Positions 10,417 through 48,564 of a stretch of DNA of 57,103 bases are shown here, in pieces. Location: IMG/VR virus record IMGVR_UViG_3300042430_000603, positions 1 through 57,103 of that record; one strand, given 5' to 3'. Made by a program: the position numbers and the translations under genes. This DNA comes from a virus (Duplodnaviria > Caudoviricetes). Numbering within the stretch: the stretch's first letter is position 1; each line of letters begins with the position of its first letter. A model generated the notes under the pieces. That model worked only from the letters and a program-made list of their open reading frames with translations. It ran no database searches and was not told the origin of the DNA.

Positions 10417-10438
10417 ACCAGGGGACGCTAAAGAGAGA
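10416..10438 (+). promoter_or_regulatory. SP6/T7-like phage RNAP promoter, copy 1 (predicted +1 = G10433)
   Basis: TACCAGGGGACGCTAAA|GAGAGA; 10412-10440 is identical over 29 nt to 31284-31312; aligns to SP6 ATTTAGGTGACACTATA|G. Confidence 0.75.
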
Positions 10439-31287: not shown

Positions 31288-31310
31288 TACCAGGGGACGC
31301 TAAAGAGAGA
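31288..31310 (+). promoter_or_regulatory. SP6/T7-like phage RNAP promoter, copy 2 (predicted +1 = G31305)
   Basis: TACCAGGGGACGCTAAA|GAGAGA, identical to copy 1; intergenic. Confidence 0.75.
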
Positions 31311-41126: not shown

Positions 41127-41573
41127 ATGGAATATATTGAAGTAGGACAAAATGAGCAACCTATTGGTGCTCCTATATTGGAAGAAAATTTAAAATACGT
41201 ATTTCCAAACTTGCATATCATACCAGAAAATATGCATGAACATGGATATCGGCCAATACTAGATAATAAACCTGAAATAACAGCTAAACAATATTTACGT
41301 AGATTACATTTTTCAAAACAAGGTGATAATTTTGTATGGAATTGGGAAATTGTTACACACGATCAAGATCATTTAACTAACTATTGTATTCGTTTTAGAA
41401 GAGATAGTGAATTAAGAGACTGTGATTGGACACAAACTTTAGATGCACCACTAAGTGCTCAAAAGAAAACTGAATGGGCAGCATATAGATCTGCTCTTCG
41501 TAATTTAACAAACTTATATCCAGCTGTAGATTTTACAACTGAAATAGAATGGCCAGTGAGACCAAGTAAATGA
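41127..41573 (+). CDS. Tail fibre assembly chaperone
   Basis: C-terminal R..RD..L...DWTQ..DAPL....K.EW..YR.ALR.L...WP..P motif; ATG 41127 has an AAGGA RBS. Confidence 0.75.
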   Translation: MEYIEVGQNEQPIGAPILEENLKYVFPNLHIIPENMHEHGYRPILDNKPEITAKQYLRRLHFSKQGDNFVWNWEIVTHDQDHLTNYCIRFRRDSELRDCDWTQTLDAPLSAQKKTEWAAYRSALRNLTNLYPAVDFTTEIEWPVRPSK

Positions 41574-42226
41574 GTGAATTTTTAAGACCAATAATGGCTA
41601 CACCACTTTTGATTGGGAAGTCGGACTTAGTATCTATCAGGGAAGAGCTTAATGCTCTTTCCTATAGTTTAAGAGATAATCTAAAAGAAGGTAGTTTAGT
41701 TTCTGAAGAATGGGATCAAGGAATAAAATCGTCTAATAAAGAAGACTTTTATAAAAGTGGAGTAACTTCTTTTAATTCAATTGAAGATTTATTTCATAAA
41801 CCAGAATGGAAAAATGTATCTGATTTTATTTTTGATTTTTCAAAAACTATGATTAATACAGTAAATCCTAATAATAAGAAAATGCATATTATTAACATGT
41901 GGACAACAATTTATCCACCAGGTGCTTTTGTACCTGAGCATGTGCATTCTAACTCATATCTTAGTGGTGTGTTCTACTCTAAGACTCCAAAGAATTGTGG
42001 AGATATTGTTTTTCATGATCCTTCATGGGTAGCCAAAACAATGTTTATGCATACTGATATGCCTACATTCCCAAATGTAGAAACTAAACATAGTATTTCT
42101 CCAGAAGAAGGATTAATGGTTATATTTCCTTCTTGGTTGCCTCATAGATCATTACCAAATAACTCTACAGAAGATAGAATCATAGTCAGTTTTAATATAG
42201 GATTTTTAGATGAGACCGATGTATAA
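41570..42226 (+). CDS. 2OG-Fe(II) oxygenase (TIGR02466-like)
   Basis: HVH...LSGVFY, G.IVFHDP, FPSWLPH and RIIVSFN motifs. Confidence 0.85.
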   Translation: MSEFLRPIMATPLLIGKSDLVSIREELNALSYSLRDNLKEGSLVSEEWDQGIKSSNKEDFYKSGVTSFNSIEDLFHKPEWKNVSDFIFDFSKTMINTVNPNNKKMHIINMWTTIYPPGAFVPEHVHSNSYLSGVFYSKTPKNCGDIVFHDPSWVAKTMFMHTDMPTFPNVETKHSISPEEGLMVIFPSWLPHRSLPNNSTEDRIIVSFNIGFLDETDV

Positions 42227-42743
42227 GTATTATGATAATGTATTATCAAAAGAAGAATGTGAATACCTAATTGAATATTCAAAAGATAAATTCGAAACTG
42301 CCACAACCCATGAACTAAAACAAAATTCTTTTAGAAGAAAAGGCAAAGTGGCTTGGATTACTCCTGAGTCTGGAGAAGAATATAATAATATAGCTAGAAA
42401 AGTAATTGATTTAATGTTTTATGAAAGTAAAGAAAGTCATTTACAAGAATTGAGTCAAATTGAAAATCTTCAAATAGCTGAATATAAATTTTTAGATCAT
42501 TACAATAAACATATAGATCTAGGTACAACTGGAAACTACAGAATACTTTCTGGAGTTGTTGAATTATCAAACCCTAAAGATTATATTGGTGGCGGATTAG
42601 AAATATTTATTTCTGATAAAAAATTTAGTATACCACTTAAACAAGGTTCTGTAGTTTTCTTTCCATCTATTTTAACTCATAGAGCTAAACCAGTATTTTA
42701 TGGATCACGTTATTCTATGTCCCTATGGGGTCATAAAAAATAA
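42210..42743 (+). CDS. 2OG-Fe(II) oxygenase (prolyl-4-hydroxylase-like)
   Basis: HID, DY.GG.L, FPS..THR..PV and R.S motifs. Confidence 0.85.
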   Translation: MRPMYKYYDNVLSKEECEYLIEYSKDKFETATTHELKQNSFRRKGKVAWITPESGEEYNNIARKVIDLMFYESKESHLQELSQIENLQIAEYKFLDHYNKHIDLGTTGNYRILSGVVELSNPKDYIGGGLEIFISDKKFSIPLKQGSVVFFPSILTHRAKPVFYGSRYSMSLWGHKK

Positions 42744-42750
42744 GTAAACA

Positions 42751-42776
42751 AACGGGGAACTTCGGTTCCCTGTTTT
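42751..42776 (+). terminator. Rho-independent terminator with cUUCGg loop
   Basis: AACGGGGAAC-TTCG-GTTCCCTGTT followed by TT. Confidence 0.75.
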
Positions 42777-42790
42777 ATTAAGGAGTTTAA

Positions 42791-43327
42791 ATGGCGTTAA
42801 GAGAATTAATTAAAGATGCACATGATAGTGCAGAGAATCATCCTTTTGTAAAGAAACTATTTGCAGGAAAAATTACAAAAGAAGAGTATGGTGACTTTTT
42901 GTTTAATCAAAAACATTGCTATGCTGCATTAGAGCAAACTGCTGAAGCATTAGGTTTATTAGATGATATTGTAACTATTAAACGTACAGCAAAGATTGCA
43001 CAAGATCTACGAGATCTAAATAGAGACAAGTCTAGACAACATTTACACATGAGCACAATGGCTTACTGTGAGTATGTCAGAAAATGTTCAAAAGAACAAT
43101 TACTTGCCCACATTTATGTCCGCCATTTTGGTGATATGTACGGTGGTCAAATGCTAAAGAAGTTAGTTCCAGGTTCTGGTTCAATGTATGAATTTTATAA
43201 TCGCACAGAACTTATTGCTATTGCTAGAGAAAAATTAACAGACGATTTAGCTGATGAAGCTAAGATAGTCTTTGCCTTTGCAACACAACTATTTGATGAG
43301 TTAGCTGATGAGCATAATATTCAGTAA
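42791..43327 (+). CDS. hemO: Heme oxygenase (biliverdin-forming)
   Basis: Proximal His in LRELIKDAHDSAE; distal helix AHIYVRHFGDMYGGQML. Confidence 0.9.
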   Translation: MALRELIKDAHDSAENHPFVKKLFAGKITKEEYGDFLFNQKHCYAALEQTAEALGLLDDIVTIKRTAKIAQDLRDLNRDKSRQHLHMSTMAYCEYVRKCSKEQLLAHIYVRHFGDMYGGQMLKKLVPGSGSMYEFYNRTELIAIAREKLTDDLADEAKIVFAFATQLFDELADEHNIQ

Positions 43328-43994
43328 ACTTGAGAAGCATACACAAGACTTTAAAGATATATTAGAGTCAAGAACTTTCTTATCTGAAGAGACTCATCCA
43401 TTCCCTTGGGAAAATAATATCTATGTTAATGCTCATGTTCGTAGAGCACACTTAGATGTAGTAGATGCTAGAGATAATAAAAAGCTTTACATGATGCACC
43501 TCTGTGTATTTCCAAAGGTCTACAGTGATGCACCTATCTACGGATTTGATCTTATTGCTGGGACTAATAAAGTTACTGGAGCATTCCATGATTTTAGTCC
43601 TTGTGGTAATAAAGATCACGAACTAGTTAAATGGTTTGCTAATGAAGTAAAAGATCAAGAATGGAGTAAACCTAGAGAACTACCTGAGTGGGCTAAGAAT
43701 ATATTTAGTTCTTCAATGGTAGCTGCTGGTAATATTAATTCTGAGTTTGAGTTAAATGAAATACTCGAGCTATCTAAAAGATCATTAGAAAAGTATTTAG
43801 ATACACTACATAAGCTAAGTAGTCGGCATAGTTATGATTATAAGATAGAAAATTTTAATTTTACTGAACAACAAAATTGGTATTGTCAAAATCAAAAGAA
43901 AAATCCTCATACACCTAGAGTAATGCAGTCTCTTGGCTTTGATGAAGAAACAGTAAACAAGTTTATTCAAGAATGTCTTTTTCCAGAGGTATAA
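43308..43994 (+). CDS. pcyX: Ferredoxin-dependent bilin reductase, PcyX/PcyA type
   Basis: RRAHLDV, MMHLCVFP, PIYGFDLIAG, AFHDFSP, RELPEWA..IFS and Q.WYC..QKKN motifs; overlaps the heme oxygenase gene. Confidence 0.82.
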   Translation: MSIIFSKLEKHTQDFKDILESRTFLSEETHPFPWENNIYVNAHVRRAHLDVVDARDNKKLYMMHLCVFPKVYSDAPIYGFDLIAGTNKVTGAFHDFSPCGNKDHELVKWFANEVKDQEWSKPRELPEWAKNIFSSSMVAAGNINSEFELNEILELSKRSLEKYLDTLHKLSSRHSYDYKIENFNFTEQQNWYCQNQKKNPHTPRVMQSLGFDEETVNKFIQECLFPEV

Positions 43995-43995
43995 T

Positions 43996-44082
43996 ATGGA
44001 ATACATTGCACTACTAACTGTACCTCCAATATTTTATTGGTATACTAAAGAATATATCAAATGGTACTGCGAAGTACATTAA
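43996..44082 (+). CDS. Putative 28-aa peptide
   Basis: GAGGT RBS, ATG...TAA, MEYIALLTVPPIFYWYTKEYIKWYCEVH; ends just before a terminator. Confidence 0.4.
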   Translation: MEYIALLTVPPIFYWYTKEYIKWYCEVH

Positions 44083-44085
44083 AAT

Positions 44086-44110
44086 GGTCACCTAAAAGGT
44101 GGCCTTTTTT
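44086..44110 (+). terminator. Rho-independent terminator closing the late/auxiliary operon
   Basis: GGTCACCT-AAA-AGGTGGCC followed by T6. Confidence 0.85.
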
Positions 44111-44202
44111 ATCAAAAAAAGTGAGAAAAATGACGTATCTATAATGAAGAAATATCATTAGATAGAGTACTCAAATCAAAGTAAACTTTTAAAGGAAATC
44201 AA

Positions 44203-44466
44203 ATGTTAAAGCTAATTATTGCAGTATCAATCGCAGTATTGTCTACTAGTGCTATGGCATCTAAGCATGAGAAGTACGTAGATATGTTAATTGAAGATGG
44301 AATAATTAAAGCAACTGATAAGGCTAAAACAATATGCCAAATGGATGCTTTAGAAGTTTCAGTCTATGCCCTTGATAAAGAAATCAAGAAAGCAAAAGAT
44401 CCTTTTACTATTAAGCCAGTAGACCCTTATAAGGTAATGGCAGTATGTAATAAGCAGCACAACTGA
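44203..44466 (+). CDS. Exported hypothetical protein (Sec signal peptide)
   Basis: MLKLIIAVSIAVLSTSAMA-type signal with an AxA cleavage site; AAGGA RBS. Confidence 0.7.
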   Translation: MLKLIIAVSIAVLSTSAMASKHEKYVDMLIEDGIIKATDKAKTICQMDALEVSVYALDKEIKKAKDPFTIKPVDPYKVMAVCNKQHN

Positions 44467-44511
44467 TGAGTCTTTATGAGACGAAACCGTTGAGAAACGG
44501 TCTTGTGTATT
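44449..44511 (+). ncRNA. Type I hammerhead ribozyme (predicted cleavage after C44502)
   Basis: Stem I CACAA/TTGTG, core CTGATGA, stem II GTCT-TTATG-AGAC, GAAA, stem III CCGTT-GAGA-AACGG, GUC cleavage triplet. Confidence 0.9.
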
Positions 44512-44536
44512 TTTTGTTAACTAACGGAGTTTTTAA

Positions 44537-44947
44537 ATGAAAAAGTTCTTAATTGTTTTGTCTTTGAGCATTGCTAGTGTTTCTTCTTTTGCAAGTGAAG
44601 CATTTTGTAAGCCTAAAGAGGTTCTCAAGGTAGGTACTTATGGTGCATTAGCAGGTGCAGCAGCTTCATTGCTTATCCCTGGCGCAGGACCAATAATTGC
44701 AACAAGTATTATAACAGGTACTATTGCAACTACTGGCAATGTAGCAGTATGTGCATTTGACGAAAAAGATCGTAGTGATAAATTAGCTTTGTTTAACAAG
44801 GCAAATGAACCTACAGCTTTTGAGAAAGCAATTGTAACGCCAGTAGAAGATCGCAATTTTAAAGATAAAGCTGTGATTGGATTTACTTATGGTTATGCAA
44901 AGGCTCATGAGGGTGTTTCAAAAGCTTATGATAATCTTACTAAATAA
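44537..44947 (+). CDS. Exported/membrane hypothetical protein
   Basis: Signal peptide MKKFLIVLSLSIASVSSFA plus a glycine-zipper-like hydrophobic segment; GGAG RBS. Confidence 0.7.
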   Translation: MKKFLIVLSLSIASVSSFASEAFCKPKEVLKVGTYGALAGAAASLLIPGAGPIIATSIITGTIATTGNVAVCAFDEKDRSDKLALFNKANEPTAFEKAIVTPVEDRNFKDKAVIGFTYGYAKAHEGVSKAYDNLTK

Positions 44948-44955
44948 GAGGATAT

Positions 44956-45051
44956 ATGTCAGAAATTATTCTTGATGTTTTATTAGCGGTTATAATTGCA
45001 CTTGTGCTAGTAGCTGCGTTACTTCATGGTTTAGATGCGTTAGTTGAATAA
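44956..45051 (+). CDS. 31-aa single-pass membrane peptide
   Basis: GAGGA RBS; MSEIILDVLLAVIIALVLVAALLHGLDALVE. Confidence 0.6.
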   Translation: MSEIILDVLLAVIIALVLVAALLHGLDALVE

Positions 45052-45060
45052 GGAATTAAA

Positions 45061-45174
45061 ATGATTTATTTTGTTTACAATAAAGCAGATGGTAGTTTAA
45101 TTACAACTATTGCCTATGTAGAAGATTTAAAATATTTTAATCCTGAACTTGTAAGTATAGTAACTTACATTTAA
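45061..45174 (+). CDS. 37-aa hypothetical protein
   Basis: AAGGA RBS; MIYFVYNKADGSLITTIAYVEDLKYFNPELVSIVTYI. Confidence 0.55.
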   Translation: MIYFVYNKADGSLITTIAYVEDLKYFNPELVSIVTYI

Positions 45175-45177
45175 GCC

Positions 45178-45252
45178 TTCTCGGATAGAGAGACCCTCTA
45201 GGGTATGTACTAGACTTTCTCAGCAGAGAGACCTCTTGGGGTAAGTACCAAG
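45178..45252 (+). repeat. Tandem pair of structured elements (hairpin + H-type pseudoknot) with compensatory changes
   Basis: TTCTC-GGATA-GAGAG-ACC-C-TCTAG-GGT-ATGTA-CTAGA and TTCTC-AGCA-GAGAG-ACC-T-CTTGG-GGT-AAGTA-CCAAG. Confidence 0.7.
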
Positions 45253-45274
45253 TTCTTTTAATTTTGGAGTTATA

Positions 45275-45520
45275 ATGAGTAAATTTCTTTTGTTAAACCC
45301 ACTGTATGGCGATAACTTCGGATGTACAGCGCAAGAAATCATTGAATCATTAGAGGAATTTGGTCTTACTTATATCTTCTCAAATGACACTAAAGGTATA
45401 CCAGCAGTTTATGCTACTAGTACATCTAAAGAGTTAATTGAAAGAATGTGTACTGAAGTTGAACTTGATGGATCTATCATTGAGTTTACTTCAATTTATG
45501 ATCAACTAATTGAGGATTGA
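45275..45520 (+). CDS. Hypothetical protein
   Basis: 81-aa acidic ORF with GGAG RBS. Confidence 0.65.
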   Translation: MSKFLLLNPLYGDNFGCTAQEIIESLEEFGLTYIFSNDTKGIPAVYATSTSKELIERMCTEVELDGSIIEFTSIYDQLIED

Positions 45521-45777
45521 TTATGCCTAGACTAACTTTAAAAGCAGGTGATTACACTATTGAAGCCATTCAATACAATGCCTTTGACTCTGTTGAAGTA
45601 ATTGTGTATGATGACTTTTTACAAGCGATAGTATCCCCTTCATTATATGATGTTAAATCAGCTTATATGACTGGGGAAACTATAGCTTCTGTTATTACAG
45701 AGTCTGCTGAAGACTTTCGTAGAATTTTTAAAGCAGTTGAAGACTTAGTCTTTGTAGATAAGAAACTTGGAGTTTAA
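45517..45777 (+). CDS. Hypothetical protein
   Basis: ORF coupled to its neighbours; GAGGA RBS; start may be ATG 45523. Confidence 0.6.
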   Translation: MIMPRLTLKAGDYTIEAIQYNAFDSVEVIVYDDFLQAIVSPSLYDVKSAYMTGETIASVITESAEDFRRIFKAVEDLVFVDKKLGV

Positions 45778-45778
45778 A

Positions 45779-46018
45779 ATGTGCAATAAATGCTTATTTA
45801 ATCCTTCACCAGTTAAAATTGCAGATGAAGAAGGTTATGTTTACCATGTAGGTAAAGAAATTTATAATTATGTTAAGGCTAAATATGAGCCACATTCTTT
45901 AGATTTTTTTAACCAAGTGGGTGCAGAACTAGATCTCTGGAAAGTTAACCCTTTAGCAAATGTTAATCAACGATTTAAGAGAATTGGTCATGTCAACACA
46001 ATCAGGAACAGCAGGTAG
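45779..46018 (+). CDS. Hypothetical protein
   Basis: ATG 45779 after GGAG; begins with CxxC. Confidence 0.55.
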   Translation: MCNKCLFNPSPVKIADEEGYVYHVGKEIYNYVKAKYEPHSLDFFNQVGAELDLWKVNPLANVNQRFKRIGHVNTIRNSR

Positions 46019-46190
46019 AACTAAGAAGTTTAATACATTCCAAATTCTATGCGTAGAATGGTTTATGTATTTTGTGATATTAGTGTTACTAGATGGAAAC
46101 AACAACAGCATTGAAGAATGTGCTGGTGGTGCTTTTATGCTATTAGCATTAATTAGGATTTTCCTTTTTATTAAGAAGCAAAAATCTTAA
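45990..46190 (+). CDS. Small two-helix membrane protein
   Basis: Two hydrophobic segments; start uncertain (45960 or 45990). Confidence 0.5.
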   Translation: MSTQSGTAGRTKKFNTFQILCVEWFMYFVILVLLDGNNNSIEECAGGAFMLLALIRIFLFIKKQKS

Positions 46191-46215
46191 CACTCCCTGC
46201 CAGCGGGAGTATAAT
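46187..46215 (+). promoter_or_regulatory. Sigma70-like host promoter upstream of the RNAP operon
   Basis: TTAACA-17 nt-TATAAT (5/6 and 6/6 consensus). Confidence 0.6.
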
Positions 46216-46224
46216 CTAGCTGGC
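46192..46224 (+). other. H-type pseudoknot / nested inverted repeats
   Basis: S1 ACTCCC/GGGAGT, L1 = T, S2 GCCAGC/GCTGGC, L3 = ATAATCTA. Confidence 0.55.
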
Positions 46225-46262
46225 TTTTCTTATCAAAAATAATAATAATAATAAGGATATTT

Positions 46263-46361
46263 ATGAGCGTTTGGAAAGCTTGTTTGGTTGTTGGTTTAAT
46301 CTTCTTAGCACGGAAGGTTGTTAATTACATGGAGGCTGCAGAGGTAGAAGTAAAAGAGTGA
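46263..46361 (+). CDS. 32-aa peptide coupled to the RNAP gene
   Basis: AAGGA RBS; MSVWKACLVVGLIFLARKVVNYMEAAEVEVKE; its TGA overlaps the RNAP GTG start (GTGA). Confidence 0.55.
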   Translation: MSVWKACLVVGLIFLARKVVNYMEAAEVEVKE

Positions 46362-48538
46362 ATACTATGACAACTATTCTTGAAAAATTAGTAGCTGATC
46401 TTAGTGCTAGACAGTCTGTATTAAGGGCTGATCGAAATATTTATACTCATTACTTAAAAGATGTTGATTCTAAATTATTAGTTGATATATCTTATCCCCA
46501 TGTATTACGAGGTTTAGAAAGAAGAGGTACATTAGTTGACATTATTGCAACTATTGGTCGTAGAGTTAGGCAAGTGTTAAGCTTACCCAATGATACTATC
46601 TCTGATGCACAAGTAGGTTGGTTTGTTTGCATTGCTTATATTGAATGTGGCGTACTTTCTTTTAAACTAAAGTATACTTACAAGAATGGTAAGAAAAGCA
46701 AATATCAAGCTTACTTCTTTCAAGTTAAAGATTGGAAGGCAATCAAAGAACTTTGGGGTTTAATTGATCAAACTAAGGTAGATATCTTTCCTATGAGAGA
46801 AAAACCTGAATATTGGAAATCACCCCATAACAATCTAGGAGTACCAATTATTAAGAAAGGTCATTCCACAGCATTAGAACAGTTTAAGAAAAATGATAAA
46901 CAAACATTGTATGACATTTTAAATAAACTACAAGATACTGGGTGGAGGATTAATAAAGATGTATTTAAAGTATATCAATATTTTCTTCATAAGGAAAATG
47001 ACAATAGCCCTTTTAAATTACACTCTGAGATTGATGAAGAGAAAAAGAAATCATTAATGATTGAAGCAGAAGCTATTGAACAATTAGCTATGAGTCATTT
47101 AGATAATGCTTTCTATCACGTATACAATTTTGACTTTCGTGGTCGTGTATATGTTAATACTGCATTTTTACATGAGCAATCTAGTGACAATGCAAAAGGT
47201 TTACTTTTGTTAGATCAAGCTACACCTCTTGGTGAAAATGGTTTATTCTGGTTAAAAGTACATACCTCTAATTCTTTTGGAAATGATAAAGTTACGCTAA
47301 AACAGAGAGCAGAATTTGTAGATGAGAATATTAATTTATTCTTATCCTATGCAGAAAAACCAACTATTAATCAAGGTTGGACTGGCACTGATGCTCCCTT
47401 CTCTTTTTTAGCTGCTTGTAATGAACTTAAGAAAATTAAAGAATGGCTGATGTTAGGAAATAAATTAGAAGATTATGAATGTTCACTACCTGTGTATATT
47501 GATGGTTCTAATAATGGTGTTCAACATCTAGTAGCCATGTCTCAAGACGAAGAGATTGCCCCATTAGTAAATTTAGTTCCACAAGAGCTTCCTGGTGATG
47601 TCTACATGTATATTGCAAGATATGTATGGGAACACCTACAAGAAATGGCAGACAAATTAACACCTGAAGAAAGAGGTCAGTTTGATTCTGTTTATAGTAA
47701 AGCTAAAGAACTACAAAAAGCATATTTTGATGCACCTGAAAAGACAGAGCAAAAAGCATTAGCCTATGCTGCTGCCCAAGAATGGCGTAATCAAAATAGA
47801 GCAATCCGAGAAAAATTATTTCCTGTTTACTGGCTTAAAATTGATAATCCTAAAGATCAACGTAAAGTAGTAAAAAGAAATGTAATGACACTCGGTTACG
47901 GTGGTACTGCATATGGCATGGGTCAACAAATTATTGATGACACTCGTGATATGTCTGAATATCTTCGTGACAAAGAACATCTTTGGGGTGCATTGCTAGG
48001 TGATTTAGTATTTCAGACTTGTTATGAAAAGCTAAAAGGACCAGCTACTATGCTACGTATGTTTCAGGATCTTGCACAAAGATCTAATGAAAAAGATGTG
48101 TTCTTAAAATGGACTACACCTGTAACTAACTTTCCAGTTGTTCAGGCATATCGTAAGCCATCTATTATACGTACTAAGTTGAAGTATGGTGAAGAAGAAT
48201 TAAAAGTTCAACTTCAAACTTGGGAGGAAGCAACTATTAATAAAGATTCCCAAAAGACAGGTGCTGCACCAAATATTGTGCATAGCTTTGATGCTGCCCA
48301 CTTGACAATGACTGTTGTATCTGCACCCTATGAGATGACTGTTGTCCATGATTCTTTTGGTACTTTACCAGGACGTATGGATGATTTGTTTTATAGAGTA
48401 AGAGAACAGTTTGTAGAATTTTACAAGGCTAAACCTCTTGAAAAATTGCTTGCTGAACTTGACTGTAAAGACCTTATCCCTGAAAGGGGTAATCTAGATG
48501 TCGGTCAAATTGTGTATTCTGATTATGCTTTTTGTTAA
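46358..48538 (+). CDS. T7-like single-subunit DNA-directed RNA polymerase
   Basis: DFRGRVY, motif A DGSNNGVQH, motif B RKVVKRNVMTLGYG, PNIVHSFDAAHL, motif C VHDSF; C-terminus SDYAFC resembles T7 SDFAFA. Confidence 0.95.
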   Translation: MNTMTTILEKLVADLSARQSVLRADRNIYTHYLKDVDSKLLVDISYPHVLRGLERRGTLVDIIATIGRRVRQVLSLPNDTISDAQVGWFVCIAYIECGVLSFKLKYTYKNGKKSKYQAYFFQVKDWKAIKELWGLIDQTKVDIFPMREKPEYWKSPHNNLGVPIIKKGHSTALEQFKKNDKQTLYDILNKLQDTGWRINKDVFKVYQYFLHKENDNSPFKLHSEIDEEKKKSLMIEAEAIEQLAMSHLDNAFYHVYNFDFRGRVYVNTAFLHEQSSDNAKGLLLLDQATPLGENGLFWLKVHTSNSFGNDKVTLKQRAEFVDENINLFLSYAEKPTINQGWTGTDAPFSFLAACNELKKIKEWLMLGNKLEDYECSLPVYIDGSNNGVQHLVAMSQDEEIAPLVNLVPQELPGDVYMYIARYVWEHLQEMADKLTPEERGQFDSVYSKAKELQKAYFDAPEKTEQKALAYAAAQEWRNQNRAIREKLFPVYWLKIDNPKDQRKVVKRNVMTLGYGGTAYGMGQQIIDDTRDMSEYLRDKEHLWGALLGDLVFQTCYEKLKGPATMLRMFQDLAQRSNEKDVFLKWTTPVTNFPVVQAYRKPSIIRTKLKYGEEELKVQLQTWEEATINKDSQKTGAAPNIVHSFDAAHLTMTVVSAPYEMTVVHDSFGTLPGRMDDLFYRVREQFVEFYKAKPLEKLLAELDCKDLIPERGNLDVGQIVYSDYAFC

Positions 48539-48541
48539 GTT

Positions 48542-48564
48542 TACCAGGGTACGCTAAAGCACTA
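48542..48564 (+). promoter_or_regulatory. SP6/T7-like phage RNAP promoter, copy 3 (predicted +1 = G48559)
   Basis: TACCAGGGTACGCTAAA|G, one mismatch to copies 1-2; starts 4 nt after the RNAP stop, upstream of SSB/replication genes. Confidence 0.72.

Follow-up and report, generated by a model that had tools for sequence, protein, structure and literature searches.

Hammerhead ribozymes cut RNA to leave a 2′,3′-cyclic phosphate and a 5′-OH. The type I form is the usual one in bacteria and bacteriophages, as stated in the available text of PMC13725137. Among the closest described systems are those in the accessible part of Perreault 2011 (PMC3088659). Prophage hammerheads that flank genes are reported there to cleave both in vitro and in E. 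coli, and their proposed role is the cutting of long phage transcripts into gene-length mRNAs, with the functions of phage hammerheads stated to be unproven. An mRNA-processing role of phage hammerheads is already in print in this text and is not new here. The same text describes the halovirus hammerhead of HF1 and HF2 (HHphage), for which a 5′ end has been mapped within 3 nucleotides of the cut in an early polycistronic transcript. Our literature search found nothing on hammerheads specific to RNA-polymerase-encoding phages, and the class described below may already be included in the Perreault 2011 alignments.

The window, by which we mean the whole stretch of 57,103 nucleotides that was analyzed, is a 57-kb virus record estimated to be 78% complete and assigned to lake water by its sequencing-run labels. 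At 44457–44508, on the coding strand, it carries a canonical and conserved type I hammerhead motif with one gene on either side. A preliminary description, made from the sequence, had reported a complete hammerhead here; each element it named is present at its position, together with every consensus core base. The ribozyme consists of the following parts.

44457–44508, + strand: whole type I hammerhead ribozyme, predicted from sequence, MFE fold, score with covariance model R1 and conservation in relatives
44457–44462, + strand: stem I 5′ strand GCACAA, pairing with 44503–44508 and coding for His and Asn, the last two codons of the upstream gene
44463–44469, + strand: catalytic core CUGAUGA, read from the sequence and invariant in 7 of 7 family rows
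44470–44482, + strand: stem II, GUCU (44470–44473) with AGAC (44479–44482), and loop II UUAUG (44474–44478), read from the sequence, with 4 of 4 pairs kept in 7 of 7 rows
44483–44485, + strand: core GAA, read from the sequence and invariant in the family
44486–44501, + strand: stem III ACCGUU/AACGGU with a GAGA tetraloop, read from the sequence (inner strands CCGTT at 44487–44491 and AACGG at 44496–44500)
44502–44503, + strand: predicted cleavage site 3′ of C44502, from the hammerhead consensus
44503–44508, + strand: stem I 3′ strand UUGUGU, from the sequence and the pairing in the family

The GAA at 44483–44485, which we take to be G12, A13 and A14 in the standard numbering, is followed by A44486–T44501, the A15.1–U16.1 pair that opens stem III. 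The base after U16.1 at the cleavage site is C44502, which satisfies H (not G). Both the 5′ and the 3′ end exit through stem I while TTATG and GAGA cap stems II and III, which is the type I topology. All sequence-level features that define a hammerhead, and its type I form, are found at 44457–44508. The core-adjacent pairs A44462–T44503, G44470–C44482 and A44486–T44501 are intact in all three stems; by the available text of Perreault 2011 (PMC3088659), a mispair next to the core is disallowed in any of these stems.

Relatives of the locus were retrieved by searching viral and metagenome contigs with both flanking proteins, which gave at least 4 viral contigs and at least 5 metagenome loci. A search of viral contigs with alignment A1 returned the same 4 among the matches listed, and metagenome locus L134 is the same contig as L003. 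The motif is present at the same junction in 9 of the 9 loci listed from the downstream-protein search alone (4 viral and 5 metagenome contigs), and it is kept in all 6 of the other distinct relatives examined. Among the seven distinct rows of the family, the hammerhead varies in 4 of its 52 columns, and the adjacent upstream coding sequence in 38 of 54 (Fisher p 1e-11). One of the four variable positions is the 3′-terminal base of loop II, for which 3 rows have G and 4 have U. Another is the outermost base of stem I, whose pair is G–U in 2 rows and A–U in 5, and the remaining two are the sides of the stem III pair 44490/44497, which is U–A in 2 rows and C–G in 5 and so shows a two-sided change. 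Standard pairs fill 112 of the 112 pair cells in this alignment. The number of covarying pairs is not significant in the family alignment, since 258 of 500 shuffles reach the same count. Taken alone, the family is thin evidence for the predicted structure, with one covarying pair; the invariant unpaired core beside changing codons is the stronger point.

At the gathering level, Rfam finds only two tRNAs in the whole window and no hammerhead. In E-value mode the best hit is Hammerhead_3, mis-registered and at 28.7 bits versus a cut-off of 48.5, while RAGATH-1-hammerhead (RF03152) aligns the whole motif in the correct register at 21.9 bits versus a cut-off of 56.3. The search with Rfam hammerhead models that had been proposed as a check on the motif was negative in the sense that no model reached its gathering score, neither in clan CL00010 nor RF03152. 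The motif was therefore tested by its relatives and by a covariance model of the class. An exact-pattern scan of viral contigs, using the core plus short stem II and stem III anchors, matched at least 118 stretches, and these contigs are rich in type I hammerheads located at gene junctions. Outside the family of the window, 110 distinct matches were listed, and 100 of them have at least 4 contiguous flank pairs. The training set of model R1 comprised 100 hammerheads from other phages and excluded the family of the window. On 44454–44511 it scores 60.0 bits (rough E 5e-17), where the core, three stem II pairs and two stem III pairs agree by construction, because the training pattern of R1 was derived from the window motif, and the agreement in stem I, the remaining stem III and the spacings does not arise by construction. 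The next-best site in the window scores 14.6 bits, and no second hammerhead was found there with R1. In the related records the model gives 61–66 bits and a single match each (4 of 4), one of these records being rated 100% complete. Across the 100 class members, 97.3% of the cells are paired versus 66.6% in shuffled alignments, a value reached by 0 of 500 shuffles, and 10 of 15 pairs carry two-sided changes. A loose pattern, CTGATGA...GAAA...TH, matches once in the window; it was useless as a test because the reversed control matched 13 times, and the covariance model was used instead. Conservation in relatives and the class-model score make a chance origin of the motif very unlikely.

The Rfam cut-offs miss most of the phage type I hammerhead class. 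Among 23 canonical type I sister motifs in 20 phage loci, only 2 reach the Hammerhead_1 cut-off and 21 are missed, and because of this low detection we regard the class as widely under-annotated. Phage genomes probably carry many more hammerheads than annotation pipelines show. Two side observations were made in the loci of the class. One phage contig carries, about 1 kb away from a hammerhead, a Twister-P5 ribozyme (L045:1199–1253, − strand) that scores 48.4 bits and so exceeds its cut-off. The hammerhead at L038:585–621 sits within an array of 11 tRNA genes, flanked by tRNAs at 496–569 and 741–814.

The preliminary description had also extended stem I by AATA/TATT past a 5-nt bulge, in a geometry suited to docking with loop II. 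AATA (44449–44452) and TATT (44508–44511) are literally present in the window, but the extension is unsupported, as L003 lacks AATA and the class shows no excess of such pairing. The pair G44457–T44508 completes a 6-bp stem I, a length typical of the class (76 of 110 members, among the matches listed). T44508 is better assigned to this sixth pair, which is A–T in 5 of 7 family rows. Over 93 class members, stem I extensions reach 3.85 versus 3.89 ± 0.10 in permuted controls, which is no excess. Pairing of loop II with the flanks likewise shows no excess over the permuted controls in these 93 members (2.34 versus 2.47 and 2.31 versus 2.43). No pseudoknot or loop–bulge contact was identified in the window motif or in the comparison of the 93 class members. 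An unpaired A immediately precedes stem I in 60 of 93 class members, and one immediately follows its 3′ strand in 58 of 93; here these are A44456 and A44509. The unpaired A's flanking stem I may contribute to a tertiary contact with loop II that has yet to be described.

For 44454–44511 (58 nt), the three-way junction is both the MFE and the centroid structure. Its energy is unexceptional: the z-score is −1.8, 9 of 200 shuffles fold equally well, and an 81-nt fragment has a weak z-score of −0.76. In the relatives with a UUAUU loop II (L003:2920–2977; L004, L131 and L135), stem II is missing from the MFE fold, in which UUAUUAG takes up the core CUGAUGA as its partner. This alternative pairing of the core is the MFE in 4 of 7 family rows, those in which loop II ends in U, and the UUAUG variant of the window is free of it. 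The UUAUU-type fold could be an inactive conformer or an artifact of the energy model.

The hammerhead is surrounded by the following features.

44086–44110, + strand: terminator-like hairpin (44086–44104) and T run closing the bilin-reductase unit, from a consensus scan
44115–44174, + strand: promoter-like block, ATGACG-17-TATCAT plus TATAAT at 44140–44145, from a consensus scan and conservation
44203–44466, + strand: upstream gene, 87 aa, with a hydrophobic N-terminus that we read as signal-peptide-like; relatives in at least 3 contigs
44526–44529, + strand: GGAG, 7 nt ahead of the downstream ATG and likely the ribosome-binding site of that gene, from the sequence; kept in relatives
44537–44947, + strand: downstream gene, 136 aa, with what we read as a signal-peptide-like N-terminus and a Gly/Ala-rich hydrophobic stretch
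46358–48538, + strand: single-subunit (T7-type) RNA polymerase gene (Pfam PF00940, E 1.7e-79), 1.85 kb downstream of the hammerhead

The junction between the 87-aa and 136-aa genes is 70 nt long, and neither flanking protein has a Pfam or PHROG family. The ATG of the next ORF at 44537 is 34 nt past the predicted cut, in agreement with the preliminary description. The + strand carries 35 of the 36 ORFs of at least 120 aa in the window. Further upstream are genes for two 2OG-Fe(II) oxygenases, a heme oxygenase and a bilin reductase. A tblastn search of both oxygenases, the heme oxygenase and the bilin reductase (41570–43994) against the complete relative G004 gave no match. From the promoter-like block onward the window and G004 have a common order: 87-aa gene, hammerhead, 136-aa gene, small genes, PF00940 polymerase and replication genes. 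In place of the 41570–43994 cassette, G004 has about 15 kb of other DNA. Judged by these comparisons, the oxygenase/bilin-reductase cassette is a variable insert just upstream of a conserved early module. G004 is flagged as having terminal repeats, and its coordinate of 24.3 kb for the locus is uninformative on early or late position because its ends fall inside the structural gene block.

The block at 44115–44174 is nearly invariant in 4 of 4 aligned rows from three lineages; similarity between the lineages begins exactly at this block, and the sequence further upstream is unrelated between them. Among the aligned rows, the hairpin and T run at 44086–44110 occur only in the window and its near-identical relative. 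The block is likely a promoter or the left boundary of the conserved early module, and likely the start of the transcription unit of the hammerhead. A 13-nt promoter-like motif occurs on the + strand at 10420–10432, 31292–31304 and 48546–48558 (two exact copies and one with 1 mismatch), a copy number matched by 6 of 100 shuffles. No copy lies within 44100–46357, and the one at 48546 is just behind the polymerase gene. The preliminary description had placed the element in a polycistronic early mRNA. This setting is plausible by analogy with T7 and SP6, because nearly all the larger ORFs are on the + strand, the RNA polymerase gene lies downstream, the promoter-like block lies upstream and the next phage-promoter-like copy downstream is the one behind the polymerase gene; that such an early mRNA is self-cleaved is what we infer. 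By the same analogy, the early unit would be transcribed by the host, with the hammerhead following the first cistron. A distant search of named phages with 43300–45600 gave one Pelagibacter phage, through its bilin reductase gene only, and found the junction in none. Metatranscriptome runs X23 and X24 (5% of sampled words) yielded, over 43300–46300, short contigs of relatives whose cover excludes 44209–44511.

We consider it quite probable that a type I hammerhead occupies the 70-nt junction in the transcription unit running toward the RNA polymerase gene, and that the transcript cuts itself there and uncouples its first cistron. As soon as transcription has passed the 3′ strand of stem I, the three-way junction would fold and the RNA would be cut after C44502, as expected from the consensus. 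The upstream product would keep its stop codon and would end in the folded ribozyme with a 2′,3′-cyclic phosphate. The downstream product would begin with a 5′-OH at U44503 and have a 34-nt leader carrying GGAG. The first cistron would then be physically uncoupled from the remaining transcript, and the two parts could differ in stability and translation rate.

A refinement of this explanation concerns the stop codon. The TGA of the upstream gene (44464–44466) lies inside the catalytic core, as had been pointed out in the preliminary description, and a second in-frame TGA follows at 44467–44469. A terminating ribosome could melt stem I and the core, so that cleavage would take place only when translation of the first cistron slackens. 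We judge such gating unlikely, and modulation of cleavage by ribosomes, which the preliminary description had also raised, is speculation. All 7 of 7 family rows place the stop within the core, including L003 with its differing protein C-terminus, which is what gating would lead one to expect. The class was compared through upstream ORFs of at least 50 codons, called crudely from stop to stop. The upstream ORF ends at the first UGA of the core in 15 of 100 class members, among the matches listed, and the upstream stop begins inside the core or at most 9 nt before it in 47 of 78 class ORFs, and overlap of stop and core is therefore a common trait of the class. Of the 27 ORFs that reach the core without a stop, 15 use the core UGA versus one third expected by frame, which also favors gating, although the binomial p of 0.02 is marginal and comes from the crude ORF calls. 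However, CUGAUGA always offers two in-frame UGAs and phage junctions are short, so that compaction alone predicts frequent overlap, and a translation-linked alternative structure was not found in the window motif. The downstream ORF starts within 200 nt in 82 of 100 class members, with a median of 31 nt (34 nt here). The overlap is best read as gene-junction compaction, the simplest reading. A broader form, in which a single hammerhead would be fixed behind the first cistron of the early unit throughout a clade of freshwater phages of about 77 kb with their own RNA polymerase and would act as a translation-gated switch, seems to us quite improbable. If it were true, ribosomes terminating at the core would block folding, and as they thin out the cut would be made, giving the polymerase-bearing message a 5′-OH and an altered lifetime. 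The stop in the core would then be functional and not a result of compaction, and the unit would consist of the promoter-like block, an 87-aa secreted protein, the ribozyme, a 136-aa membrane protein and the polymerase.

The preferred reading, a self-cutting junction, is also to be weighed against two explanations without cleavage. The missing gathering-level hit in Rfam, the weak energy z-score and the lack of an identified tertiary contact would fit a match arisen by chance, or else a decayed hammerhead that has lost its activity and persists only as a structured spacer or as a stabilizer of the mRNA 3′ end. This is very unlikely in view of the 60 bits obtained with the independent class model, the core bases that are all intact in 7 of 7 rows and the compensatory change that preserves stem III; moreover, a mere spacer would not keep an unpaired core invariant beside codons that vary at 38 of 54 columns. 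It would be extremely improbable, in our estimate, for the junction to act as an intrinsic terminator or attenuator, in which the stem III hairpin ACCGUUGAGAAACGGU and the U-rich CUUGUGUAUUUUUUG partly stop transcription after the first gene and the hammerhead flanks are incidental. The consensus scan does flag 44486–44501 as terminator-like, but the U run begins 9 nt past the stem and not directly behind it. The run is unconserved, with UAUUUCCC or UAUUUUCCC in its place in 5 of 7 family rows, whereas the hammerhead core is invariant, and a terminator leaves the conserved CUGAUGA, stem II and GAAA unexplained. Separately, trans-cleavage by one enzyme acting on many substrates was considered and rejected; searching with the 13-nt substrate half and at most 3 mismatches gave 10 matches versus 11.5 expected, and only the ribozyme's own site is exact.

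The 44457–44508 element belongs, as an ordinary representative, to a large phage hammerhead class that has been described before, and the known picture of this ribozyme class is unchanged by it. As a solitary, well-conserved hammerhead at a defined place, it offers a convenient system for studying the effect of one cut on early gene expression. In the early transcript of T7, host RNase III cuts several hairpins between cistrons and leaves 5′-phosphate and 3′-OH ends. The preliminary description had drawn this parallel, and the likeness lies in a cut between cistrons in a transcript with the phage RNA polymerase gene. The RNase III sites depend on a host protein enzyme, whereas here a single self-cut is predicted, with 5′-OH and 2′,3′-cyclic phosphate ends, and there is no shared sequence or structure. 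An RNase III-like role for the 44457–44508 element would thus be an analogy.

Among ribozymes, the RAGATH-1 hammerhead (RF03152) differs by an extra 5′ hairpin of that family, which is unmatched in the window motif. With the bacterial and phage type I hammerheads (Hammerhead_1 RF00163, CL00010; available text of PMC3088659), the element has in common the core, the three helices and the open stem I, and also its place at a phage gene junction near the next start codon. The hammerheads described in that text occur as pairs or triplets flanking genes, whereas the present one is single in the window and in each of 4 of 4 related records. HHphage of HF1 and HF2, as presented in the same text, resembles this element in being solitary and in preceding a start codon by a few nucleotides, within the early, polycistronic region of a lytic virus. 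It has a variant core, belongs to an archaeal virus and precedes the first ORF, while the element described here has the full consensus core and follows the first small ORF.
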